Below, one piece after another: positions 1,674-31,526 of a stretch of 32,017 nucleotides of DNA. The stretch comes from a virus. The notes beneath the pieces are model-generated. The model saw only the letters and a program-made list of their open reading frames with translations, was not told the origin of the DNA and made no database searches. Every line of letters starts with the position of its first letter. The first letter of the stretch is position 1. The stretch is from the IMG/VR virus record IMGVR_UViG_3300010049_000008, positions 1-32,017 of that record, one strand, 5' to 3'. The position numbers and the translations under genes were made by a program.

Positions 1674-1704
1674 CCCCCCCCCGTTAACATTGTGAGGAAT
1701 AAAT
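1665..1704 (+). promoter_or_regulatory. Promoter-like element with a C9 tract: TTTATCTAA-CCCCCCCCC-GTTAACATTGTGAGGAATAAAT-ATG
   Basis: A/T box at 1665..1673, homopolymer C9 at 1674..1682, and GAGG 9 nt before ATG 1705. The same CCCCCCCCCGTTA 13-mer occurs on the other strand at 28848..28860, also upstream of a gene. Confidence 0.4.
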
Positions 1705-2242: not shown

Positions 2243-2285
2243 TTTATATATCCGTTTGGTATATGTTAACATGGAGTTAAACAAC
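2243..2285 (+). promoter_or_regulatory. Promoter/operator/leader cassette P1: TTTATATA-N12-ATGTTAACAT-GGAGTTAAACAAC-ATG
   Basis: TATA-like octamer at 2243..2250, 10-bp palindrome at 2263..2272, GGAG, then ATG at 2286. The 49 nt at 2243..2291 are identical to 31310..31358. Confidence 0.6.
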
Positions 2286-2654
2286 ATGACCGTACTAATG
2301 AACTATAAAAAAATTGAACAATCTCATCTTAACCAAATAATAAAAAACATGGAACAACTCGGATACACAGGTAAAGACTACCACACAGCCAAACAACCTT
2401 TCCCCCAAGACAAAAAACTCAGCGGAATACAAAAAGAAAGCTTCAGCTACTCAGTTAATGGCCGTGGAGAATTAATTGACGAAACCGTAAGCCAAATGAC
2501 AATACACTCAGCCGCACAAGGCAAAGTATTAATTTATAATAAAGAATGCTTCGAAATAATAAGCCGCAACGGAAAAGGCATAGAAGCCCAAAGAATAGTA
2601 GAACTCTATCCAAAACGATTTACATGCAAGGTAGTTTTTCGCTACCTCTACTAA
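2286..2654 (+). CDS. Hypothetical protein, 122 aa (MTVLMNYKKIEQSHLNQ...)
   Basis: 3' part of track ORF 2064..2654. Start set at the ATG after the conserved GGAGTTAAACAAC leader. The upstream part of that ORF is antisense to gene 1953..2213 and crosses the promoter. Confidence 0.65.
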   Translation: MTVLMNYKKIEQSHLNQIIKNMEQLGYTGKDYHTAKQPFPQDKKLSGIQKESFSYSVNGRGELIDETVSQMTIHSAAQGKVLIYNKECFEIISRNGKGIEAQRIVELYPKRFTCKVVFRYLY

Positions 2655-6800: not shown

Positions 6801-8452
6801 TATAGTGTAGTATTCGCGGCGGGGCTGGTGAACGTTGACGGGGTTACGGTTGAGCCGGACACCGCAAAATCAGGGGTGACCGCTGACGCAGAAAAAGCCC
6901 AGCCGAGATAGAGAAAGGGAACCGCTTGCAGATTGCCCGTATTCGCTAATACTGTTACGGGGTCGCCTGCATAGTAAGTGTTGCTATCCGTGGGTACGGT
7001 TCCGCTTGTGCTGGTTGCAGTACTGGGAAAGTTAGCGTTATATGTTACTGTTCGAGGTGTTGTGTCATGATACCAGACTGCATATAATTGCACATTGTTA
7101 GCGGGCATACTCATAGTCGGAGGTGTTGTGCCTGACCCAGATAAAGTAAATGTGGGAGTTGTTGCAGATGGATTTGTATCCCACCCCAACATTTGATAAG
7201 GCGGCGCGGTTAGACTTCCGGTGTTGCCTTGAATTGTGACCGATTCACCCGCTATATACACATTAGCATCAGTTGGCACATTTCCTCCTGTGCTGGTTGC
7301 GTCTGAAGGAAAATTAGCATTATAACCGATAGTAAATAACTGTTGCCATACTGCGTATAAAGTAACGTTAGCATTACCCATTGTAAAACTTGATGGAGTT
7401 ACAACGGTTCCGTTACTGCTAAAGGCAAATGTTGCTGTGGTGGCGCTTGGATTTGTATCCCAACCTAACAAGCGGTAGCCCATGCGGGCAAGATTTCCCG
7501 TATTCGCCGCAACTGGAACCGCCCATCCCGGCTCATATAAATTATTGTCAACGGGAACGGTTCCCGTTAATCCGGGGCCGATGGGTGCATTAGCATTATA
7601 TGTTACGGTATAGGTAGGAGTGACTTGCCATATCATGTATAAGGTGGTTGTAGTGGGGTTGGCTACGGTTGGAGCAATAAAGCTCGGAGGAGTAACCGTA
7701 TCATTAGGGCCAAAAACATAAGTTGGCACGGAAGCATTAGCCGTTGTTGCCCACCCTAACGGGGTATGATGAGGAATAGCTAAGTTCCCACTATTGGGCG
7801 CAATATACACAGTATCTCCTGCGAAATATTGGTTTGAGTCTTGGGGAACGGTGCCTGTGACGTTTCCAGCTTGACCGGCGGGGGCATTTACGTTATAAAC
7901 TACGGTTTGAGGGATTTTATATGCGTATATTCGAAACTTCCAGTTTATTGAAGATACTATCGGTGAGCCACTGTCCGTACCGCCGACCAGAGGCACGCCT
8001 GAACCACCAGCATTAAACGAGGTGAAACTGCGCCCATTATAATTCACATCATTTATCCCGTTGGAATTTCGTTCAATATCGAGAGTAGTGGCCAAGCTTG
8101 TTGAACGGGATAGCACCCAGACATATGTTTTAGCAGGGTCAAGATAAAAATCGGCTGATAAGGTGAAATCAACCCAGCCCATAGTAGTGTTTACTTGTAA
8201 CTGGGTAACGTTTGCGGGGCCAGCTAAATAACTGCCGATTGGCAGTCTTGTGGTGAGATTGGCTTCTTGGAGATAAAGTGAAATGTTGCCGTTGAATGCG
8301 GCGTTTCGTTTCATGGAAAGGGAAACTCTTCGAATATTCTTTCCATTACCCTGAAACGATGTGCCCAAAATATAATTTAATCCAAAATCCCAATTTTGGG
8401 TTGCTGTTCCTGTATCTGTACTGTTATCAATTATAACTTCATAAAAACTCAT
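3821..8452 (-). CDS. Tail tip / Tal-like baseplate hub fused to receptor-binding fibre, 1543 aa
   Basis: Follows TMP and Dit in the canonical order. It has an N-terminal beta-rich domain (aa 1-180), six ~90-aa tandem repeats (aa 182-738), a hub-like middle region, a Gly/Asn/Ser-rich fibre region and a C-terminal coiled coil (TRRVEALEKLISKL). Confidence 0.85.
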   Translation of the reverse strand: MSFYEVIIDNSTDTGTATQNWDFGLNYILGTSFQGNGKNIRRVSLSMKRNAAFNGNISLYLQEANLTTRLPIGSYLAGPANVTQLQVNTTMGWVDFTLSADFYLDPAKTYVWVLSRSTSLATTLDIERNSNGINDVNYNGRSFTSFNAGGSGVPLVGGTDSGSPIVSSINWKFRIYAYKIPQTVVYNVNAPAGQAGNVTGTVPQDSNQYFAGDTVYIAPNSGNLAIPHHTPLGWATTANASVPTYVFGPNDTVTPPSFIAPTVANPTTTTLYMIWQVTPTYTVTYNANAPIGPGLTGTVPVDNNLYEPGWAVPVAANTGNLARMGYRLLGWDTNPSATTATFAFSSNGTVVTPSSFTMGNANVTLYAVWQQLFTIGYNANFPSDATSTGGNVPTDANVYIAGESVTIQGNTGSLTAPPYQMLGWDTNPSATTPTFTLSGSGTTPPTMSMPANNVQLYAVWYHDTTPRTVTYNANFPSTATSTSGTVPTDSNTYYAGDPVTVLANTGNLQAVPFLYLGWAFSASAVTPDFAVSGSTVTPSTFTSPAANTTLYAVWQQLYTVTYAPNPPAGTTLTGSVPVDNNLYRSTDSVTVQANPNNLNTTGYKVIGWDLPGELNSPSFRIQTDGITVAPSSFIIGAANITLNAVWQESFGVTYAANPPSGTTYTGTVPVDPNEYFQFATVSVIGNTGNLAILEYGLDGWDFNPLASLSTFKVNIDNTVTPPSFAMGTAPVTLYAVWRPRITPPLTSTGKPRVNYWNGSAYVAPPFQFDWIEILDEMGEAGGNLSATIATVNTPAALAFVQSVQGQSFQLTYNDVIVFQGVLLSRDINSTRITCGLFDPVLNYLYKAVNTITRAFDQTPANLILQHIAAQALNISAGQCPTTPVSIAFNEENALTAVQKLAAVLGLDYWPANGQINIGYRSSTLYESPLWQSGSHTTKDESKVIGTVQVWGSGTDEEQTLIMGQYPAVKTGAVKVYQNPNAADIDTLNTMAKFLWTRLSNPSANGNSLNALLHQTYMMRAGQFIVVNRPDLDFISDTDGFQIKRITKTPSMVTVELDVAIPQQMRLLQDITGQMVGNGSTQVNGIQVRGGITFETLKNIPLEDLIGSMQGFGVLLFGLDAEKPAPDTVSQGAMFYATDTQAYYFAEPDPITGLNVWTLCGTLNLALMAGQIHAGQLSIYGVDANGRLDFSNGNIGNGYVTPFLKLDGNGLSGYNSSGQPSFYIDASNGNAYFANGSITMNRNGMFIMPPGGGGNEIVIDSGGIAGFDSAQVRQFYIDISTGKGTFGAGTMSIGANGLVSPFANIASNGISIFGQSLRFVDGSGNQQGTIGFDSSNTVINFTAAIGQNYTAPSYLWYFPGYNPLYYWTMNAGGVGANSGVLGAFTGNGITAFGNYGFASGYSTDTGNASVYASGQGTMWLKANGTSLSSGGLGDYDVLLNYNNGSSYGNIAITGSIVPKNDNSGTIGQNGNRFSLVRAVTITPGDLVFENDVRMTEIERDLAMYSDDGELLQYWGRVDKEKDTIQILTRRVEALEKLISKLANS
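6239..7909 (-). repeat. Six tandem ~90-aa coding repeats resembling Listeria-Bacteroides (Flg_new / InlB B-repeat) domains
   Basis: Each unit reads like TVTYNAN..TGTVP.D.N.Y..G..VTV..NTGNL...GY..LGW.T.......F.......TP..F......V.LYAVWQ. Units end at LYMIW, LYAVW (x4) and LNAVW. An identical 19-mer TGTTGCCATACTGCGTATA occurs at 6786..6804 and 7341..7359. Confidence 0.7.
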
Positions 8453-8866: not shown

Positions 8867-10477
8867 CTAATAGCGCACTCCTAATCTGTTCTGTCCTTCA
8901 GTTCCAAGCGCATTGCTTATGGCGCGGACTAAGGCTTGTTCTTCTCCCCGAGTCACCGCGTCCTCTATGGCTGAGACTATTTCGTCTAAGCTTTGCGAAC
9001 CGGAAACACTCTCTATACTTATGGTGGGGGTGCTGGTTACGTGTATTGTTACGTCTCCAGTACCGCCTCCTGTTGGGCCAGAGGGAACTATTGAACCGTC
9101 AGTACCTCCTACGGGAACCACTGCCTCGGGGCCAGCTTCCCCAATCACCCCCTGCGGAACCCCTGCTGAATCTACAAGCGTGTAGGGTTCGGTAACTATG
9201 CCGCCTGTAGCCATCTTAGTGCCCCCAGACGACCCGCCCCCGCCAAATAAGCCTCCAAAGAATCCTCCTAAAGCATTTCCAATACCGCTTAAAAAATCCC
9301 CAACGGGCTTAAATATTGTATCATAAACCTTCTTTAGGGCGTCAGCTACAGGTTTAATAAGATTATCCCAGACCCATTTAAACGCATTCCCTAAGTTTTC
9401 CCAAGCCTTTTGTAAAACATTCTTTATGAAGTTGCCAATTGGAACCAGCACATTCTCCCAAAAAGCAGTGAGTAATTTCATAACGTTCTCAATAATGCCT
9501 GTAAAGATTGTTTTTAGAACTTTGCCGAAGGCGTCTATAGCATTTTTCACAGTCTCATTATTTTCATAAAGATAATACAGGGCCAAAGCTAAAGCTACTA
9601 TAGCCGCTATAATTATTACGATTGGATTGGCCGCTAAGAAACTCATAGCGCCTCCTAAAGCTGTTGTGGCCCCTGTTTGCACGGTGGTTGCTGTGGTGGC
9701 TAATCCCTGAGCCGCTGTTTGTGCGCCAGTTGCGGCAGTGTTAGCAACTGTAGTGCCAGTTAGCGCGGCTTTTACAGCAGAAAGGGCAGATTGAGCACCC
9801 GTAAGCAATCCAGTGGCACCCTGCAGAGAAGTAACCATAGTAATCATGCTGGGAAGAACGGTTAAGGCCATTTGGACATAACCCTTCTCAAGGTTTTTCT
9901 GGGCCTGCTCTTCATTCGCTAAGGCGAGGCGGCTTTGCTCACTTTTAATGGAAAGGTTTTCATCTGCTAACGCCTGTTTATTTTTCGCATCTTCTAATTT
10001 GAGTGTGGCCTCTTCCCACTGAGGAGAATCCCTTCCAAACTCCTGCATAGCCTGATATACGGCGTCCTCGGCAGTTTGAACTTTCCAATTCGCATCTTCT
10101 AAGGCTTGGCTGGCTTTCTCTTCCGCAAACTTGGCTTTAGTTACCGCTTGAGATGACTTATCAACAGCTAACTGTTTAGTAGATAAAGAATCATAAGCAT
10201 TATAAAGCGACATAGCAGAAGTAGCTACATTGTTGGCGGCTAAAGCAGATTTGGTAAATGAAACATCGGTAGCGTTAGCGCCTTTACTTATTTCAGCGGA
10301 TGCAGAAGAAGTTGCGGAAGCGGCATCATTCATCCCCGTAGTAACAGCGGCACCAGCCGAAGCACCCGCCTCAGACATAGTATTCATAGAAGAGGTAACT
10401 TGATTACTTGCGTTATTGATAGCTTCGGAAGCTTCATCTATTACAGAAATATGTATAGTTACCTCTTCAACGCTCAC
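8867..10477 (-). CDS. Tape measure protein, 536 aa
   Basis: GTG start with GAGGT 7 nt upstream. Ala/Ser/Gln-rich helical N half, hydrophobic segment PIVIIIAAIVALALALYYLY, Gly-rich linker, and the C-terminal GVIGEAGPEAVVP motif typical of tape measures. Sits downstream of the chaperone frameshift. Confidence 0.85.
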   Translation of the reverse strand: MSVEEVTIHISVIDEASEAINNASNQVTSSMNTMSEAGASAGAAVTTGMNDAASATSSASAEISKGANATDVSFTKSALAANNVATSAMSLYNAYDSLSTKQLAVDKSSQAVTKAKFAEEKASQALEDANWKVQTAEDAVYQAMQEFGRDSPQWEEATLKLEDAKNKQALADENLSIKSEQSRLALANEEQAQKNLEKGYVQMALTVLPSMITMVTSLQGATGLLTGAQSALSAVKAALTGTTVANTAATGAQTAAQGLATTATTVQTGATTALGGAMSFLAANPIVIIIAAIVALALALYYLYENNETVKNAIDAFGKVLKTIFTGIIENVMKLLTAFWENVLVPIGNFIKNVLQKAWENLGNAFKWVWDNLIKPVADALKKVYDTIFKPVGDFLSGIGNALGGFFGGLFGGGGSSGGTKMATGGIVTEPYTLVDSAGVPQGVIGEAGPEAVVPVGGTDGSIVPSGPTGGGTGDVTIHVTSTPTISIESVSGSQSLDEIVSAIEDAVTRGEEQALVRAISNALGTEGQNRLGVRY

Positions 10478-12488: not shown

Positions 12489-13687
12489 ACTTTTTGTCCT
12501 CCTATTCGGCCGCTGAAATCATGACCCGACGTCACCCGTAATAAACCAAGTTGTCTTAAGATTTGATTTGCCTGTGTGGTATAGTTAGCCCACTGTACGC
12601 CGTATTTCCCATCTTTGGGATACTGCACACGTAAATCTCCCAAACTGTAACTCTGCAAGACACCTCCGCTCCAAGCCGCTAACACTTTAAGCGCCGCTAA
12701 CATACTGCTAAGATGAGCAACATTAGTGGGAACAGTCGCATAGCCAAAAGTGTAGTCTACCTGAAATACTTTCATGCCGTTTACAAAGTTGCGGTAGAAT
12801 TGGATTTCACAGCGGGCCGGATAAACTTCATAATTCGCATCTGTGGGGCCGCCGTCTGCTGTTCTTCCCTCGATTGTGGGCCACCATTGGTTAGACTGCC
12901 AAAACGTCACATTATTAACTTGTACTAATGGAAAATTGTTTAGCAGAATTTGTCCCGGCGGCATCTCTAACAAGCGGTCATAAGTTTCAACTGTATCATG
13001 TAATCTGAAGTCATGTCCGCACCAGCCGTCAATAAACGCGTCCGCTTCCTCAATCATTGTTTGCGCTTGGGCTAAGGTGGGTTTGGTGGTGTCGGTGAAA
13101 GTGAAGCCTAACAAAGCTTGTAAATCTGCTATACTGCTGTAACTGTTTCCTATAGGGGTGGGAGGGTCGGTGTGCAGGGTGAGCAATTGAAAAGGCAGGA
13201 CTTCAGAAATCACTATAGCAGAATTCCAAGCCGCAGAATATTGCAAAAACATTTGACCGTTGCGCGATGCATCAGGAGAGGTACCTGTGGTGATAAACAT
13301 GTTTCCTGAACCGGGCGCAGTAGCATTCACAATAGCCACAAAATAGATAGAGCCGGAAACGGTTTGTACGGGGTTAGCAAAATCAAACTCTATCCATCCT
13401 GCCACGTTATTTATGGATTGCATCGCTATATTTACACTTGAACCCACAACAGTTTTGTTTTGGTCGAGTATTAGCATCTGCATTTGGCCTGTCTGATTAT
13501 TATTTTGGCGGCTGATAATCACCCGACCTTTATTAATTATGTCTCCGGTACCCATAAATTGTTGCGCTACGCCCGCATTATTTAGTGCGGTGCTGAGGTA
13601 TGCGGCCCCTAAGTTTTGAGTTGATGTGGGAGGATAGAGTATGATTTCATCTATGACGTCATATACTATTTCTATGGGTTCGGTCAT
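12485..13687 (-). CDS. Head-tail adaptor (gp6/gp15-like connector) with an extra N-terminal beta-rich domain, 400 aa
   Basis: The C-terminal half begins SSIADLQALLGFTFTDTTKPTLAQAQTMIEEADAFIDGWCGHDF, the usual opening of head-tail connector proteins. The N-terminal ~175 aa resembles the Tal N-terminal domain. Confidence 0.6.
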   Translation of the reverse strand: MTEPIEIVYDVIDEIILYPPTSTQNLGAAYLSTALNNAGVAQQFMGTGDIINKGRVIISRQNNNQTGQMQMLILDQNKTVVGSSVNIAMQSINNVAGWIEFDFANPVQTVSGSIYFVAIVNATAPGSGNMFITTGTSPDASRNGQMFLQYSAAWNSAIVISEVLPFQLLTLHTDPPTPIGNSYSSIADLQALLGFTFTDTTKPTLAQAQTMIEEADAFIDGWCGHDFRLHDTVETYDRLLEMPPGQILLNNFPLVQVNNVTFWQSNQWWPTIEGRTADGGPTDANYEVYPARCEIQFYRNFVNGMKVFQVDYTFGYATVPTNVAHLSSMLAALKVLAAWSGGVLQSYSLGDLRVQYPKDGKYGVQWANYTTQANQILRQLGLLRVTSGHDFSGRIGGQKV

Positions 13688-15396: not shown

Positions 15397-16698
15397 TTAG
15401 GGGTTGGCACCCATTAGGGCCGCCATAACTGCACCAATATCCCCATTATACTGGATGAGGAGTTCACGTGCATTCTGTTCTACACCGCGTGCCCGCTTAA
15501 CATTGGGGCCTGACCCGGTTTCTGCTGTTGGGCTGGTTTGTTTAGCATCGGTTCGGGTGGGGACTAAGTCAGGGTTCGCGTTTGGTATGGTGCCCGCATC
15601 TGCGCCCGCTTCAACTTGTTTAGCTTGCTCGTATCCACCGGTGTTGGGGCCGCCCATAGTTGGAGGACAAGTAACATTAGCGGGAGTCCAAGTACCCTCC
15701 TGATATTTACCACGGAATTTACGTTCAGCCGCCATAAGAATCTCTTGGGGTGTACGGTTCTGTTTTAGCGACTCTTCTTGTTCTTCTTCCTCTTCACCTT
15801 CGCCCTCTTCCCCCTCTTCTTCTTCGGTTTCAACTTCTACAGTAGTGATGTTGACTTCGACAGATTCTTTAGGTTTTTTCTTCTCTTTCTTTTGCTTCTC
15901 CTCTTCCTCTTCTTCCTCGTCTTTGTCGTCCGCTTCTTCTTCCTCCTCCTCTTCATCTTTAGCTTCTTCTTTGGATTTCTTTTTCTTAGCGGCCTCTTTA
16001 GATTTCTTGGTTTTGGTTTCTTCTTCTTCTTCTTCTTCTTCTTCTTCTTCTTCTTCTTCTTTGGCGGCTTGTTTTAGGGGTTTGCATGTTGGGCATCCGC
16101 ATTCTGCGACGTGTACGGGTTGGAGTTTAGCCATCATAGCTTCCAATATTTTTAGTTTCGCGTCAAAAGTTTCATCTATACGTTTCATGGCTGATTCATA
16201 TATGCGAGTTGATTTTTCGCTGTCTCTGAGGCTTTGGGTGATACGTGATATTTCAGTCATGGCCGCCTGTTCAATTGCCGGGAAAGGTGTGATGCTTAAT
16301 TCTTCGGGGTTGAATTCGATAATCATTTCTTTCCCGTCTGCGGTTAGTACCATTGGGCCGTTACCGCCGACAGAAACACCCATCAACATTTTAGGCTTAC
16401 CGTTCTCGCCGCTCATTTTTTCGAAAAGGGATTCGTGAAGCAAGCCGCGGCCAGACAACCAAAGACCATCAACAGTTTGACCCAACGCATTTTTTCCTGT
16501 ACCATATTCTGCGGATTCCACAACACCCGCAACATCACGAGACCCAAAGCCGTGGTCTAACATGAGGGGTTTTCCGGGGTACTTTGGTGCGGCGTCCATT
16601 AATGTTTTTTCGTTCCAGATATAGCCGTTGCGCGACTCGGTTGGGTAAGCCGCGAAAGCTTTCCAATTGAAATATGCATTACCTTGTTTATCTGCCAT
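15397..16698 (-). CDS. Prohead protease (HK97 / S78-like) fused to a coiled-coil and highly acidic scaffold domain, 433 aa
   Basis: PLMLDHGFGSRDVAGVV, LMGVSVGG and EELSITPFPAIEQA match the landmarks of HK97-family prohead proteases. A coiled coil and a ~100-aa Glu/Lys tract follow. Confidence 0.8.
   Translation of the reverse strand: MADKQGNAYFNWKAFAAYPTESRNGYIWNEKTLMDAAPKYPGKPLMLDHGFGSRDVAGVVESAEYGTGKNALGQTVDGLWLSGRGLLHESLFEKMSGENGKPKMLMGVSVGGNGPMVLTADGKEMIIEFNPEELSITPFPAIEQAAMTEISRITQSLRDSEKSTRIYESAMKRIDETFDAKLKILEAMMAKLQPVHVAECGCPTCKPLKQAAKEEEEEEEEEEEEEETKTKKSKEAAKKKKSKEEAKDEEEEEEEADDKDEEEEEEEKQKKEKKKPKESVEVNITTVEVETEEEEGEEGEGEEEEEQEESLKQNRTPQEILMAAERKFRGKYQEGTWTPANVTCPPTMGGPNTGGYEQAKQVEAGADAGTIPNANPDLVPTRTDAKQTSPTAETGSGPNVKRARGVEQNARELLIQYNGDIGAVMAALMGANP
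16018..16059 (-). repeat. Perfect (GAA)14 trinucleotide microsatellite inside the scaffold domain
   Basis: The plus strand reads ttc x14 without interruption and encodes a poly-Glu run. Further imperfect GAA/GAG/AAG runs extend down to about 15770. Confidence 0.9.
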
Positions 16699-22461: not shown

Positions 22462-23910
22462 TTATGACCCGCTTACATAACTATTGGGTGCTGTTTTGTT
22501 TATAAGCTTATTTTCAGCTCCCCCCACATTAGAGCTTGGTGCACGCACACCCCTAAACACATTCTCACAGAGTAACACTACGGCATCAACGGCGTCGTCG
22601 TGAGCATCTTTGGGAAAACTTACCCATTGCTGGGTAAATAATGAGTCTCTAAGTGCTGGATTGATAAGCACTCTCATGGCTTCGAAGTGAGCACTTGCCA
22701 CCGTAAAACGTATCTCCTTATTTGTGTGGGTGTGTACGGGGACGATGGGGTAAGTGGTGCCGTTGGGGTGGGTTCTGAAGTTGGCATGTTTTATCAATAT
22801 TTTCTGCATGAAATTGGCCTCAACATACATTTTTAATGGATTATATTTTTCAAATTCGTTTGGCAGATGAGCTGATAATATTTCAAAATAATCCTTATGT
22901 TCTGCCCATACATTATAGAGATATAACCTATTCTGAAACGCCGAATAACCCCCCGTGGCTATTGCAAAGTAGTCATTTTCTCCTCCTGCTGGGTCAATTG
23001 CCATATATGGTTTTATGTCGGTGGGTGTGTAGGGGCTTAAGTTTGGCTGGGTTGTATCCCAATAATGAAGCCACTCCGCTTTTAGCATATCACCCGTGGC
23101 GGGCAACGGCTGGTTTATATATTGGTTAAAGAATTTGATTGTGCCCAAATCATTTTTACGTTCTAAAAGGGCTTCGATGGGCCAGACTTCCGGCCACAAC
23201 ACTTGAGCGGGTTCACGGCCTGCAAAGTAGGCCTCGCTGTTTTTGATGGCGCTTAAACTTTGAGACGGCCATCCTAAACCATTCTCCGATTTGGGGTTTA
23301 TGAGATTACTGTATAGGTCGTTATTGTGCCATCGGGAACCTATCACAATTATTGCGCCTGTGCTAAACATTGTGGGGAGCAACGCCTCACGAAACCAATC
23401 AAACGCCTTATTTCTTTGGAGTTCGGTGCCGACATTCTCTACATCTATTATGTCGTCACAAATGATGAGGTCAAATCCCTGTCCCGTCAGATTTCCCGAA
23501 CCGTATAGGCCCGAGGCGCTTAGGGTGGGAAATTTACTTATCTGTTTTCGTTCTAAGGTGAAAGCGTTATCGTTCCATTGTTGTGGGTTATCTGGTTTTA
23601 GATTACCAAATACTTCTATGTGACGTTTATCAAATTCAATCCTGCGCCGAACAGCTTTCAAAGTATTAGTAGCCAGAGTGTCAGTTTTTGAGGTTATTAA
23701 TGCGTGTAATTCTGGGAACCGGGAGATTATCCAGCTTAAACAATTAATTGCAAAAACTTCTGATTTAGCATGTTTTCGAGGGCCAAGAAAAACATATTTC
23801 TTGAGCGCCTGCTTATGGTCGGGGAGGGGGCTTATGTGGTTCTGGTTGTTTTGGGGAGAAAATAGGTTATACCAATAGTTTTGATAATCAGCTATGTTTT
23901 GGTAACCCAT
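22462..23910 (-). CDS. terL: Terminase large subunit, 482 aa
   Basis: Walker-A-like FLGPRKHAKS, Walker B FDLIICDD, and C-terminal nuclease acidic motifs MAIDPAGG and HDDAVDAVV. Confidence 0.9.
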   Translation of the reverse strand: MGYQNIADYQNYWYNLFSPQNNQNHISPLPDHKQALKKYVFLGPRKHAKSEVFAINCLSWIISRFPELHALITSKTDTLATNTLKAVRRRIEFDKRHIEVFGNLKPDNPQQWNDNAFTLERKQISKFPTLSASGLYGSGNLTGQGFDLIICDDIIDVENVGTELQRNKAFDWFREALLPTMFSTGAIIVIGSRWHNNDLYSNLINPKSENGLGWPSQSLSAIKNSEAYFAGREPAQVLWPEVWPIEALLERKNDLGTIKFFNQYINQPLPATGDMLKAEWLHYWDTTQPNLSPYTPTDIKPYMAIDPAGGENDYFAIATGGYSAFQNRLYLYNVWAEHKDYFEILSAHLPNEFEKYNPLKMYVEANFMQKILIKHANFRTHPNGTTYPIVPVHTHTNKEIRFTVASAHFEAMRVLINPALRDSLFTQQWVSFPKDAHDDAVDAVVLLCENVFRGVRAPSSNVGGAENKLINKTAPNSYVSGS

Positions 23911-23942: not shown

Positions 23943-24320
23943 CTAAGTTTCGTGCTGTGTATATTCCGCATCAACTATCTGCTGTGAGTCTTGTATTTTC
24001 TTCTGGATGATGGGTAGATTTTCGAGTGTGAAAAGGTCTATAGCAGGGGTTTTTCTCACAGGTTCGGTAGTATCTTTTTGTTCAATTTTTGCGTTGATGA
24101 TTTTCGGTGTGAGAATCCGCAGTAATTCGGCTCGGCGTAGCATGCGGAATAATTCGTTACCACAGTTTTCAATCTCCTCAAGCTGGCGGCGTACTAAGCC
24201 GTCTCGAAATTCTCCGCTTAGGGTGCCATGCATATGCAGGTTTACGGTTGCCGGGGATAAGCTGATTTTATGGTTTTGGTAAAGTTTAGTTTGAATATCC
24301 CGCACAGAAAATCCTTTCAC
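23943..24320 (-). CDS. Small terminase-like DNA-binding protein, 125 aa (by position)
   Basis: GTG start. N-terminal HTH-like FSVRDIQTKLYQNHKISLSPATVNLHM followed by a helical region. Lies directly upstream of TerL. Confidence 0.45.
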   Translation of the reverse strand: MKGFSVRDIQTKLYQNHKISLSPATVNLHMHGTLSGEFRDGLVRRQLEEIENCGNELFRMLRRAELLRILTPKIINAKIEQKDTTEPVRKTPAIDLFTLENLPIIQKKIQDSQQIVDAEYTQHET

Positions 24321-25255: not shown

Positions 25256-25609
25256 TTAATCCCTCTCAGTTAAGTTAGTTTTGTCATAATTGAAACGTAC
25301 ACTGCTTATTCGGCTTTCTATACCTGCAATACGTCTATTTAATTCACCTATATACAGGTCAAGTTCTACACCATCTTGGATTAGGTAATATCCATTAGAG
25401 GTTGCTCCTATGGGCAGATAGGTATGTTTAATCAGGAATCGGATGTAGCTTCTTGTTTTGGGATTGGCTTCGCCGTCGTTTATGTCAAGTTTTTCTGCTA
25501 TCTCGGTGCTGGTTATAGGGTTATCTTTTCCGGCGTGTTGTACAAGTAAGTTTTGAAGCTGTCTCAATGTTTGGCCGTCTAAACGGTGTTTAGTTCCTTT
25601 TTTGTTCAT
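25256..25609 (-). CDS. Winged-helix (HTH_11/BirA-like) transcription regulator, 117 aa
   Basis: NPITSTEIAEKLDI...KTRSYIRFLIKHTYLPIGATSNGYYL is a typical wHTH, followed by a helical tail. Start set at the ATG after the conserved leader. Confidence 0.65.
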   Translation of the reverse strand: MNKKGTKHRLDGQTLRQLQNLLVQHAGKDNPITSTEIAEKLDINDGEANPKTRSYIRFLIKHTYLPIGATSNGYYLIQDGVELDLYIGELNRRIAGIESRISSVRFNYDKTNLTERD

Positions 25610-28834: not shown

Positions 28835-28872
28835 GTTGACCACACCATAACGGGGGGGGGAACATAAATAAA
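28835..28872 (-). promoter_or_regulatory. Leftward promoter-like element with a C9 tract: TTTATTTAT-GTT-CCCCCCCCC-GTTATGGTGTGGTCAAC-ATG
   Basis: A/T box at 28864..28872 (minus strand) and G9 on the plus strand at 28852..28860. Same CCCCCCCCCGTTA as at 1674..1686. Confidence 0.4.
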
Positions 28873-29144
28873 GCTTTCCTTCAGACGACGAAATTAAAAA
28901 ATGGTGATATATCCTACTCCGCTACCCGCGTGAAGCTAAAATGAAGAAATACCGTAAACACCAGTTTGGAGACCTTACGCCAACATGAAAACGTAAGATT
29001 GTTTTTGCGGTGCATCACAGGCAATCATCACCACCCAATAACAAGTATACAGGAATATAAATGTTAATAAAATGGCGGCTGGCTACAGCCATAACGCACC
29101 AATATACACGGCGTTTATAACCACATATACATGGATTTTGTCCC

Positions 29145-29400
29145 ATATTTTAGCTCTAAGGGGCGAGCGTCATCGTTGAGGGATAGCTTCAGCCGTTAAT
29201 CATAGCGGGCTTGGAGGCCCGTTCTTATAGCGCAAGCGGCAACTCACTATCACTTATTTCGACTTGACTGATAGCCCGGTTCATATGTGGACACTATCAG
29301 CCATTCCCGACAATCCGGCAGGGATTGACGAGCTTAACCAAGATACTTTCAGCGGTAACCGTCACAAGCCTTACGAGGGCAAGCCGTCATTACATGATTT
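29145..29400. ncRNA. Candidate structured non-coding RNA (visibly G+C-richer island inside the control region)
   Basis: Local hairpins: AGCGGGC/GCCCGTT (29204..29223), CTGATAG/CTATCAG (29268..29300) and CAATCC/GGATTG (29310..29326). TTTATAA at 29114..29120 could serve as a TATA box for plus-strand transcription. Strand and ends are unknown. Confidence 0.2.
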
Positions 29401-29567
29401 CTCTATATCTGCACTCCTACGCAAATAGTAAGTTTGCGTTAATTGCCACAATTGATTAAGCATACCCTAATAGGTGAAAGTCATAATTAAAGTTATCTGA
29501 AATCAACCAAAACAACATTTTTGTTGTAGAGGCAAAGTTTCCGTTTTTCTATTCAACCAATGACTTA

Positions 29568-29610
29568 GGGTTAACGGGGTTAAAGAGGTTTAACCCCGTA
29601 AGGGGTTTTT
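29568..29610 (+). promoter_or_regulatory. Cluster of GGGGTTAA boxes forming two mutually exclusive hairpins
   Basis: H1 pairs ACGGGGTTAAA (29574..29584) with TTTAACCCCGT (29589..29599). H2 pairs AACCCC (29592..29597) with GGGGTT (29602..29607) around a GTAA loop, followed by a T run. Confidence 0.5.
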
Positions 29611-29841
29611 GAGTATTATAGTTTAGCGTTTTTTAGAGGGAGAAAAAGAAAAGTTAAGAAAGTTAAAGTTATTAATAGTATATATACTACTACTATCTAC
29701 ATTTACTTTTACTTTTACTTACAAGTAATACAATCGATACTTACACAACATCATATTTAAGGCTTTCCCAACAAACAATCAGGTGATTAGGGTGGATTTT
29801 TGGGTGCTGGAAAAAGTGTTTTATTGTTTTTCGCTTAGAAA

Positions 29842-29868
29842 GTTTAACCCAGTTAACCCCGTTAACCC
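29842..29868. repeat. Three tandem GTT(T)AACCC(C) boxes, inverted relative to the 29568..29584 boxes
   Basis: GTTTAACCC a GTTAACCCC GTTAACCC. Together with the upstream G-strand boxes they bracket a ~230-bp A/T-rich stretch containing (TTTTAC) repeats. Confidence 0.7.
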
Positions 29869-29930
29869 TGTTTGGTTGTTGTAGTTAGTTGCAATATTCT
29901 AAAAGTTATTCAACTAAAGTTTAATCTATT

Positions 29931-30018
29931 GTTAAACATGTTAAAGGTTGTGCAAAAGGTTAAGATGTTAAACATGTTAAAGGTTGTGCAAAAGGTTAAG
30001 ATGTTAAACATGTTAAAG
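29931..30018. repeat. 36-bp tandem direct repeat, 2.4 copies (iteron/operator-like)
   Basis: gttaaacatgttaaaggttgtgcaaaaggttaagat occurs at 29931..29966 and 29967..30002, both identical, with a partial third copy at 30003..30018. Each copy contains the AACATGTT palindrome. The array abuts the TATA box at 30019. Confidence 0.9.
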
Positions 30019-30063
30019 TTTATTAATGTGAGTGCAGTAAAGTCTATTATGGAGTTAAACAAC
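30019..30063 (+). promoter_or_regulatory. Rightward promoter P4: TTTATTAAT-N21-ATGGAGTTAAACAAC-ATG (opens an 11-codon uORF)
   Basis: It shares the 18-nt leader ATGGAGTTAAACAACATG with P1-P3. The ATG at 30064 encodes only MTTNKRNYLWL, which overlaps the real start at 30090. Confidence 0.5.
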
Positions 30064-30089
30064 ATGACTACAAACAAGAGGAATTATTT

Positions 30090-30326
30090 ATGGTTGTAAA
30101 AGAAATTAAAACACATGAAACCCGTCATCTGCTCATAAAAAGTCGTCATCCCGGAGAGGCCGCGTTAATAAAAGAGTTTAAGTTAATGGCAATACGTCAA
30201 AACAGTAATCACAACGAACTGTTTAACACTGTAATTCAGTTGGTAAAGGTGATTGAGCAGTTAGAAAATAAGTCATTAAATGAAGTGTATTATGAATACA
30301 CAAAAAAGTTATCGGTAGAGGGATAG
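30090..30326 (+). CDS. Hypothetical protein, 78 aa; first gene of the rightward arm
   Basis: Track ORF with GAGGAA 7 nt upstream. Possibly a small DNA-binding protein, but no motif is certain. Confidence 0.6.
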   Translation: MVVKEIKTHETRHLLIKSRHPGEAALIKEFKLMAIRQNSNHNELFNTVIQLVKVIEQLENKSLNEVYYEYTKKLSVEG

Positions 30327-31309: not shown

Positions 31310-31352
31310 TTTATATATCCGTTTGGTATATGTTAACATGGAGTTAAACAAC
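31310..31352 (+). promoter_or_regulatory. Promoter/operator/leader cassette P2 (identical to P1)
   Basis: 31310..31358 equals 2243..2291 (49/49). TATA at 31310..31317 and palindrome at 31330..31339. Confidence 0.6.
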
Positions 31353-31526
31353 ATGACCAGCACAGAACAATACAGAATAATAAACCGATTAACAACAGTA
31401 TGGGAAGAATTAGACGAACTACAACAAAGCCTATACCAGAAAGAACGCGACCAAATAATAGAGGCTAAAGTAGCGGTTGACAAAATTCTCAAAACCTTAA
31501 CAACCAACGACCACTATATAGAGTGA
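31353..31526 (+). CDS. 57-aa helical protein (MTSTEQYRIINRLTTVWEELDELQQSLYQ...)
   Basis: Track ORF 31323..31526 trimmed to the ATG after the conserved leader. Confidence 0.55.
   Translation: MTSTEQYRIINRLTTVWEELDELQQSLYQKERDQIIEAKVAVDKILKTLTTNDHYIE

Follow-up and report, generated by a model that had tools for sequence, protein, structure and literature searches.

A repeat-rich, gene-free region between the divergent arms of a probable Bathyarchaeia tailed virus: a possible promoter and operator hub

The DNA analysed here (IMG/VR record IMGVR_UViG_3300010049_000008; the window, by which we mean the whole stretch of 32,017 nt) is the genome of a tailed virus whose hosts, judged from sequence relatedness, are probably Bathyarchaeia archaea, and its largest non-coding gap lies where a leftward and a rightward gene arm diverge. 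We read this gap as a transcription-control region, a hub of promoters and operators, with a probability of about 0.45, and the same region may also be a replication origin. The reading draws on roughly 500 bp (29567-30060) saturated with GTTAA-core sites, chiefly direct pairs 9 bp apart, on predicted promoters at the edges of the gap and within it, and on an A/T-rich core of which some 75-90 nt are kept, with unchanged orientation relative to the terminase arm, in the nearest relative (L009), which comes from the same ENA sample and has proteins only about 50% identical. Divergent viral control regions with repeats are familiar and ordinary in kind, the virus group at hand is little known, and what is new is the particular box with its 9-bp register, as well as the conserved core. 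To our knowledge viruses of Bathyarchaeia are known from metagenomes only, and nothing has been reported on how they control transcription, replication or packaging; in the literature examined no cis-acting element of this virus group is described.

The gap, its boxes and its predicted promoters

The second-largest gap in the genome measures 514 nt. An earlier, sequence-only reading of this DNA had described the region as free of open reading frames (ORFs) of at least 60 codons; the gap itself stands, but a 75-codon ORF with a TTG start does exist at 29872-30099. We rejected this ORF as an artefact: it is made of a 36-nt tandem repeat, has a codon score near zero and is absent from public gene calls. 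ORFs of the gap score from -0.22 to +0.065 per codon in codon usage, against 0.165 ± 0.108 for small genes of up to 125 amino acids (aa). Neither alternative genetic codes nor stop-codon reassignment opened a long ORF in the gap, and tblastx of the gap against relatives returned no translated similarity. The gap does divide a leftward arm, starting at ATG 28834, from a rightward one, but the start of the latter had been placed at 30064, whereas the true first gene begins at ATG 30090. Also missed at that stage were the 36-nt repeat with its 2.5 units, the G+C-richer stretch at 29150-29450 and the TATA-type promoter motifs.

Direct reading of the sequence finds the GGGTTAA/TTAACCC boxes exactly where they had been reported (Table 1). 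The right cluster can be written as three units (GTTTAACCC, AGTTAACCC and CGTTAACCC) at 9-bp spacing, inverted with respect to the left cluster, and the two clusters form inverted arms of 28 nt (29567-29594 and 29842-29869) that are 86% complementary, with 247 nt between them. Six of the ten GGGTTAA/TTAACCC occurrences in the genome fall inside 29568-29868, and the triplet pattern TTAACCCNNTTAACCCNNTTAACCC, allowed up to 3 mismatches, finds both clusters and nothing else, with no occurrence in 100 shuffles. The left cluster contains a perfect 11-bp hairpin at 29574-29599 (DNA fold -11.6 kcal/mol, z = -4.6) and, as read from the sequence, an overlapping alternative hairpin, AACCCCGTAAGGGGTT, followed by T5 at 29606-29610. 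The exact left cluster, taken as a 30-nt left arm, has no match in IMG/VR. TTAACCC triplets do occur in 19 IMG/VR contigs and were considered as a widely shared motif, an idea that was rejected on finding a permuted control box in more than 120 contigs; several of the 19 are coding Val-Asn-Pro repeats.

GTTAA/TTAAC, the core of the box, occurs 20 times in 29544-30054, the average being 1.9 per 511 nt and no other place having more than 7. Direct GTTAA pairs with spacers of 2-8 nt total 14 in the genome, ten of them in 29570-30020, three in promoter cassettes (see below) and one elsewhere. Eight of the ten gap pairs have a 4-nt spacer, which gives the 9-bp register, and two a 3-nt spacer; the cassette pairs have a 6-nt spacer and are located between TATA box and ATG. 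Every unit of the 36-nt repeat has GTTAA pairs, and its final partial unit runs into the TATA box of the predicted rightward promoter, P_R. The repeat has 2.5 units in the window and 1.5 in an ENA assembly of the same virus (L003, 9877-9929), a difference due either to copy-number variation or to collapse in assembly. The genome has just two G/C runs of at least 7 nt, at 1674-1682 (+) and 28852-28860. The former, 23 nt before ATG 1705, is a box pair whose C run is expanded (TAAC-C9-GTTAAC). Both C9 runs, read in gene orientation, are followed by GTTA, and a start codon lies 18-23 nt downstream of each; they may be spacers prone to slippage within promoter or leader regions. The GTTAA pairs of the cassettes and these C9 variants near starts thus link the box core to promoters at several places. 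It is close to certain that the boxes would prove to be cooperative protein-binding sites.

A TATA-type 8-mer (TTTATATA, TTTAAATA or TTTATTTA) begins 43 nt before the ATG at five genes; the distance is 38 nt for 28834 and 45 nt for 30064. This geometry agrees with the archaeal rule described for SSV1, by which a TTTAWA-type TATA box has its centre some 27 nt ahead of the transcription start; by the same rule P4 is predicted to start transcription inside the left box cluster (bioRxiv 10.64898/2026.06.17.732947). Because their TATA boxes stand at a near-fixed distance before start codons, the predicted promoters P1 and P_R bound the gap, and they point outward at its edges, with three more TATA-like elements, P2, P3 and P4, pointing leftward within it. 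The 17-nt motif of P1 (GGAAAGCYTTAWWTATG) has three copies in the whole genome, each of them in the gap and each on the minus strand.

Elsewhere in the genome a 49-nt promoter-plus-leader cassette occurs at 2243-2291 (+) and 31310-31358 (+), with a 92%-identical inverted copy at 25653-25606. Each cassette comprises a TATA box (TTTATATA or TTTAAATA), 35 conserved nt that hold GGAG and end in GGAGTTAAACAAC, and a gene's ATG. The cassettes (92-100% identical) precede the genes starting at 2286, 31353 and 25609, and Logan contigs break there. Common to all three is the P_R leader, TATGGAGTTAAACAACATGAC, the last 21 nt of the cassette recurring as a partial copy at 30048-30068 (+). A database scan with the leader gave one match, which lies inside a coding region and was set aside as chance. 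The mini-ORF that begins at 30064 occupies the canonical start position behind P_R and may encode a leader peptide or couple translation.

What is found in the gap is therefore what a promoter with operators would present, namely TATA boxes at a near-fixed distance and repeats that overlap or abut promoter elements, all of these being predicted sites. An archaeal tailed virus with a comparable arrangement is the halovirus HF2, in which intergenic repeat cassettes carry a TATA box and the transcription start, as verified experimentally, and in which the bidirectional promoter region has three direct-repeat boxes (12 bp at 15-bp spacing within about 50 bp) that are conserved in relatives (PMC8707807). 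The window resembles HF2 in its three to four promoter-leader cassettes and in having box arrays at the divergence point; it differs in its 9-bp units, in the two inverted triplets 247 bp apart, in the additional 36-nt repeat and in that its promoters are predicted ones.

Table 1. Coordinates of features in and beside the gap
Feature	Position	Strand	Basis or remark
Largest non-coding gap	28835..30089 (1,255 nt)	.	ORF lists, gap table; empty in public gene calls
C9 homopolymer (G9 on the plus strand), then GTTA, between P1 TATA box and start codon	28852..28860	-	Sequence
P1 (predicted), motif GGAAAGCTTTATTTATG	28863..28879	-	TATA box TTTATTTA at 28872-28865, 38 nt before ATG 28834
G+C-richer non-coding stretch	28900..29480	-	Composition; up to 54% G+C at 29150-29450
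P2 (promoter-like), AGATAACTTTAATTATG	29482..29498	-	Second motif copy; role proposed from similarity to P1
Left box cluster: GGGTTAAC 29568-29575, GGGGTTAAA 29576-29584, inverted TTTAACCCC 29589-29597	29567..29599	+	Sequence
P4 (TATA-like), CTATAATAC	29613..29621	-	Place homologous to L009 TATA box TTATATTC
Conserved A/T-rich core	29640..29728	-	(GTAAAA)n, TAG/GTA repeats, TTTAAC repeats, pyrimidine tract
P3 (promoter-like), GGAAAGCCTTAAATATG	29752..29768	-	Third motif copy; points into the conserved core, no ORF downstream
Right box cluster: GTTTAACCC 29842-29850, GTTAACCCC 29852-29860, GTTAACCC 29861-29868	29842..29869	+	Sequence
36-nt tandem repeat x2.5, TGTTAAACATGTTAAAGGTTGTGCAAAAGGTTAAGA	29930..30018	+	Tandem Repeats Finder (TRF) score 178, 100% matches
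P_R, TATA box TTTATTAA at 30019-30026	30019..30068	+	45 nt before ATG 30064
11-codon mini-ORF, MTTNKRNYLWL	30064-30099	+	Overlaps start of the 78-aa gene 30090-30326
First rightward gene, 78 aa, without homologues	30090-30326	+	ORF lists, homology search

We propose that one sequence-specific DNA-binding protein, viral or host, would bind pairs of GTTAA half-sites cooperatively. On this proposal the left triplet would cover the predicted P4 start and the 36-nt repeats would abut the P_R TATA box, and the inverted triplets, which are about 273 bp apart centre to centre (approximately 26 helical turns), could be bridged into a loop enclosing P3, P4 and the core. The balance between the two arms, the short (early) one running rightward and the long one running leftward to the packaging and structural genes, would be set by such a complex. 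The conserved core might then be the upstream element of a strong leftward promoter and possibly also the place where the DNA opens for replication. Operator arrays with flanking or looping sites are known from lambda (OL-OR) and coliphage 186 (FL/FR), and ribbon-helix-helix proteins bind tandem-repeat operators or centromeres such as the omega heptads and R1 parC. Like the gap, these arrays have short contiguous repeats with two clusters flanking promoters, and theirs are cooperative and loop over a few hundred bp; they are bacterial and have known binding proteins, whereas no regulator was recognised in the window.

The region offers testable landmarks: a TATA box that precedes the ATG by about 43 nt, with its common leader, the 9-bp-spaced GTTAA/GGGTTAA box, for which a specific binding protein is predicted to exist, and the core of some 75-90 nt that the two viruses have in common. 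These elements could be used as baits for binding proteins and as landmarks when the reads of the source metagenome are analysed.

A number of points weigh against a control hub. No regulator was recognised, all of the early proteins tested being without homologues or family matches. The GTTAA pairs of the cassettes have an 11-bp and those of the gap a 9-bp register, so that the same protein need not bind both. Archaeal promoters normally need no conserved A/T-rich upstream DNA of some 90 nt, and the symmetry of inverted triplets about a melting-prone core is no less characteristic of origins. Finally, about 650 nt of the gap (28900-29560) are not explained by a hub of this kind.

The G+C-richer stretch belongs to that part of the gap. 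It is bracketed by P2 and by T-runs at 29076-29066 and 28905-28895 (minus strand), with a terminator-like hairpin and T-run at 29091-29066; its fold z-scores are modest (-1 to -2.6), and neither translated nor DNA similarity to it was seen in relatives. One possible identity of this stretch is a leftward non-coding transcript, another a long 5' untranslated region. A search of the whole window against Rfam 15 gave no match at gathering thresholds, and ARAGORN found no tRNA or tmRNA in it; the best sub-threshold Rfam matches scored 19.2 bits (CRISPR-DR36, threshold 38) and 18.6 bits. The CRISPR-DR36 match, which covers 29579-29613 (E 0.24) and reflects a common CCCCGUAAGGGG hairpin, invites the idea of a small RNA element, in which the left cluster would specify either a hairpin RNA mimicking a CRISPR repeat (GTTAAAGAGGTTTAACCCCGTAAGGGG), that is, a solitary repeat unit serving as an anti-CRISPR decoy, or a terminator/antiterminator pair. 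The two mutually exclusive hairpins and the T5 that follows are in line with such an element. However, the score is far under its threshold, no second repeat stands at spacer distance, the motif was not found in two supplementary text files, which are a part of the Bathyarchaeia virus study, and the right cluster and the 9-bp spacing would be left unexplained; we regard an RNA function of this kind as very improbable.

The A/T-rich core and the question of an origin

The sequence-only reading had seen in this region the layout of an origin, with inverted initiator boxes around an unwinding element. The layout is there, and well beyond what chance would give, in that inverted clusters surround the most easily melted DNA; an origin function is not borne out by nucleotide skew, by likeness to the archaeal origin recognition box (ORB) or by conservation of the boxes. 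The core between the clusters has, as had been said, a low G+C content (22-31%) and a hexamer repeat, which TRF gives as (TACTTT)3.8 at 29698-29720, and a purine run, GAGAAAAAGAAAAG, lies at 29640-29653. No other 100- or 150-nt duplex in the genome is less stable than the core, with -104.8 kcal/mol where the mean is -132.1 (standard deviation 8.5).

L009 and the window have in common the tape measure protein (72%), the major capsid protein (53%), the large terminase (51%) and the portal (48%), together with a weak similarity of the putative small terminases (27% identity over 85 aa, pairwise E 1e-6). Local alignment of the core (window minus strand, 29728-29640) with L009 8903-9000 scores 44, against 20.8 ± 3.3 (at most 36) when the core alone was dinucleotide-shuffled 1,000 times; for other A/T-rich segments of the two genomes the scores are 14-24, and the alignment is the best match among loci L001-L059. 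When IMG/VR and JGI metagenomes were scanned for the core, L009 and L060 alone came up, the latter being the L009 virus at 99.6% identity. The core of L009 is likewise the stability minimum of its locus, carries two TTTTAACC units and stops approximately 15 nt before the TATA box TTATATTC (9029-9036), which stands 43 nt ahead of a 91-aa gene; this gene precedes the putative small and large terminase genes, and the core lies about 350 nt upstream of the former.

Recurrence in L009 is limited to the core and, loosely, to GGTTAA/TTAACC motifs. Clusters of TTAACCC/GGGTTAA triplets are absent from it, and TTAACCCNNTTAACCC occurs in none of the terminase-relative loci compared (L009 and others, including 11 Bathyarchaeota loci), so that conservation of the boxes, which had been proposed as a check on an origin, speaks against one. 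L009 has further elements of its own: in a divergent intergenic region (7960-8110) there is a nested G+C-rich hairpin with an 11-bp perfect stem (8013-8023/8073-8083) around a TTCG-loop hairpin, and at 8115-8197 a 21-nt inverted repeat with GGTTAA/TTAACC brackets the start of the first gene. Either may be a structured RNA or an operator.

The main rival to a control hub is a replication origin, alone or overlapping the promoters, which we consider possible though doubtful. An initiator, whether a viral protein without homologues or a recruited host factor, would bind the inverted triplets and open the A/T-rich core, and transcription from P3 into the core could aid opening or priming, much as transcription helps opening or priming at the primary origin of T7. 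That genome-unique inverted clusters flank the least stable duplex, that the core is the part kept in L009 and is the stability minimum there too, and that the site stands at the divergence of two gene arms are all in keeping with such a function. Cumulative GC skew, proposed earlier as a test, was uninformative and lends no support: after detrending its extremes fall at 13,058 (minimum) and 24,293 (maximum), outside the gap; AT skew has its extremes at 28,837 and 3,757, where gene orientation switches, and merely tracks it. The absence of the box triplets from L009 counts against an origin, as does the fact that GTTAA pairs mark promoters elsewhere in the genome too. In more distant relatives the least stable duplex is found within a divergent intergenic region in L183 and shortly ahead of the capsid gene in L182 and L039, and because these minima are in or beside likely promoter regions, a stability minimum is not specific to an unwinding element in this group. 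Taken with the GTTAA pairs of the cassettes and the TATA box beside the L009 core, the minima of the relatives mean that the layout would fit a complex of operators and promoters, or a site recognised by terminase, equally well.

Known origins allow a closer comparison. Archaeal oriC regions have ORB or mini-ORB repeats, inverted, around an unwinding element and beside orc1/cdc6. In the window, too, inverted repeats (the 28-nt arms) with G-runs flank the most A/T-rich and least stable DNA in a long intergenic region, the arrangement of an ORB and unwinding-element origin. The box GGGTTAA(C/A), however, has no similarity to the ORB dyad TTCCAGTGGAAAC, its units are contiguous 9-mers rather than elements of about 36 bp or 13 bp, no orc1/cdc6 is adjacent and the boxes are not kept in the nearest relative. 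The likeness to archaeal ORB sites that had been suggested thus fails at the sequence level: the ORB core consensus is not in the box clusters, and the dyad, allowed up to 3 mismatches, is found 16 times genome-wide against 10 ± 3 expected, with one instance in the gap (29347, 3 mismatches). Iteron origins have at least three direct repeats, usually of 17-22 bp and helix-phased, by an A/T-rich region and in or beside an initiator gene; the gap has direct repeats, but as contiguous 9-mers, and an A/T-rich region, with no recognisable initiator gene.

That no recognisable initiator, polymerase or primase is encoded had been noted before, and Pfam and/or PHROGs searches of some 48 proteins agree, finding no polymerase, primase, helicase, initiator (orc1/cdc6 included) or integrase and almost nothing recognisable beyond the structural module. 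Genes flanking the gap are without homologues. A parallel outside these origin classes is the Tind-Tlys region of SSV1, repeat- and palindrome-rich and low in G+C, which is a transcription control point and a long proposed, hypothesised but unproven origin (bioRxiv 10.64898/2026.06.17.732947). The gap resembles it in being rich in repeats and palindromes and low in G+C, as a regulatory part of an archaeal virus genome; SSV1 belongs to another virus realm, its transcripts there are convergent and no sequence similarity exists. Should the triplets and core after all be the origin of a Bathyarchaeia tailed virus that lacks a recognisable replication protein, which we hold only tentatively, a new initiator family would be hidden among its homologue-less proteins, or host machinery would be captured through a non-ORB sequence, and viruses of this archaeal class would for the first time have a defined cis-acting replication element.

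Packaging, inversion and transposition

The proximity of the L009 core to terminase genes bears on another reading, in which the site is a packaging site (pac or cos), the small terminase binding the box clusters and the large subunit cutting in or near the core. The viral proteins common to the window and L009 are structural and packaging ones only, the putative small terminase among them, and a conserved cis element could for this reason pair with a conserved small terminase. Terminase sites with clustered boxes include pacL-pacC-pacR of SPP1, the 4+3 hexamers of P1 pac and the R sites of lambda cosB; as in the window, two clusters of short repeats bracket about 150-270 bp, and the comparison extends to L009, whose homologous core stands just upstream of its terminase genes. 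The window differs in that its site lies 5.3 kb and some 15 genes upstream of the putative small-terminase gene (23943-24320). Moreover, two independent assemblies run unbroken through the site, and all contig ends lie in other repeats. A GTTAACCC array just upstream of a 204-aa gene, itself followed by a GpA-type large terminase, in unrelated phage contigs (L015, L018, L022, L023 and L025) might be taken in support, yet such likeness is not special in view of the permuted control box described above (more than 120 contigs against 19). On balance we think packaging an improbable role for the site. The five contigs, from IMG/VR and with 60-65% G+C, have four to five GTTAACCC-like units in a layout that resembles lambda cosB.

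Inverted arms that flank a short segment with promoter-like elements also recall an invertible promoter switch, with the 28-nt arms as recombination sites at which the 247-bp segment carrying P3 and P4 would flip. We give this almost no credence: no recombinase domain was found among the proteins searched, and the arms are internally 9-bp tandem arrays, unlike the core sites of recombinases. A single orientation is seen in the JGI window, the ENA contig and a Logan contig, the last of which is unbroken through both arms and was presumably assembled with k = 31, longer than the arms themselves. Still less probable is the insertion into the intergenic region of a miniature inverted-repeat transposable element some 303 bp long, for which the 28-nt terminal inverted repeats around an A/T-rich interior would speak. 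At its borders (...GACTT|AGGG to the left, CCCT|GTTTG to the right) a target-site duplication is lacking, neither a second copy in the genome nor a match to the left arm in IMG/VR was found, and it is the interior that is kept in L009, which has no arms.

The virus, its genome and further observations

The first 123 nt of the window are identical to the last 123 nt, and the sequence was assembled again, independently and with its break at another position, in the ENA assembly ERZ27264051 (k141_5877115, 31,884 nt); from these two observations we take the genome to close into a circle of about 31.9 kb. The leftward arm is long, running from 28834 down to 3821, with many small genes first and the structural and packaging genes after them, namely large terminase (22462-23910), portal, head proteins, tape measure and a 1,543-aa tail protein. 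The rightward arm is short and leads from 30090 over the junction to 3653, with about 15 small genes.

In a terminase profile search the 11 best genomic loci, at 41-50% identity, all belong to Candidatus Bathyarchaeota/Bathyarchaeia genomes, including one within a 3.05-Mb chromosome, and bacterial matches in the same search reach at most 31% identity. On account of this relatedness we treat the virus as an archaeal, Bathyarchaeia-type tailed virus, an assignment with which its many small zinc-ribbon-like proteins and its promoter motifs agree. The nearest terminases are at most 52% identical, and L009 alone among the relatives has further proteins in common with the window. No DNA relatives were found in the INPHARED phage collection, and the virus could not be matched to any Bathyarchaeia virus of PMC10541130 as far as the text of that study allows. 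The flanking and early proteins (193 aa, 78 aa and 213/234 aa) gave no real homologues; a single-sequence AlphaFold model of the 78-aa protein was uninformative (pLDDT 55) and did not confirm a ribbon-helix-helix fold.

One small non-structural protein, and one only, has a family match. It is the 117-aa product of 25256-25609 (-), encoded behind the inverted promoter cassette (cassette C), and it matches phrog_2113, a family of unknown function, with an E of 9e-15. By eye its sequence has the look of a winged-helix DNA-binding protein, which would make it a candidate regulator. A perfect (TTC)14.7 microsatellite at 16018-16061 lies within a 433-aa head-related gene, with more TTC-rich repeats at 15772-15971; on the minus strand these would give an acidic, Glu-rich run, and the ENA contig ends inside the microsatellite.

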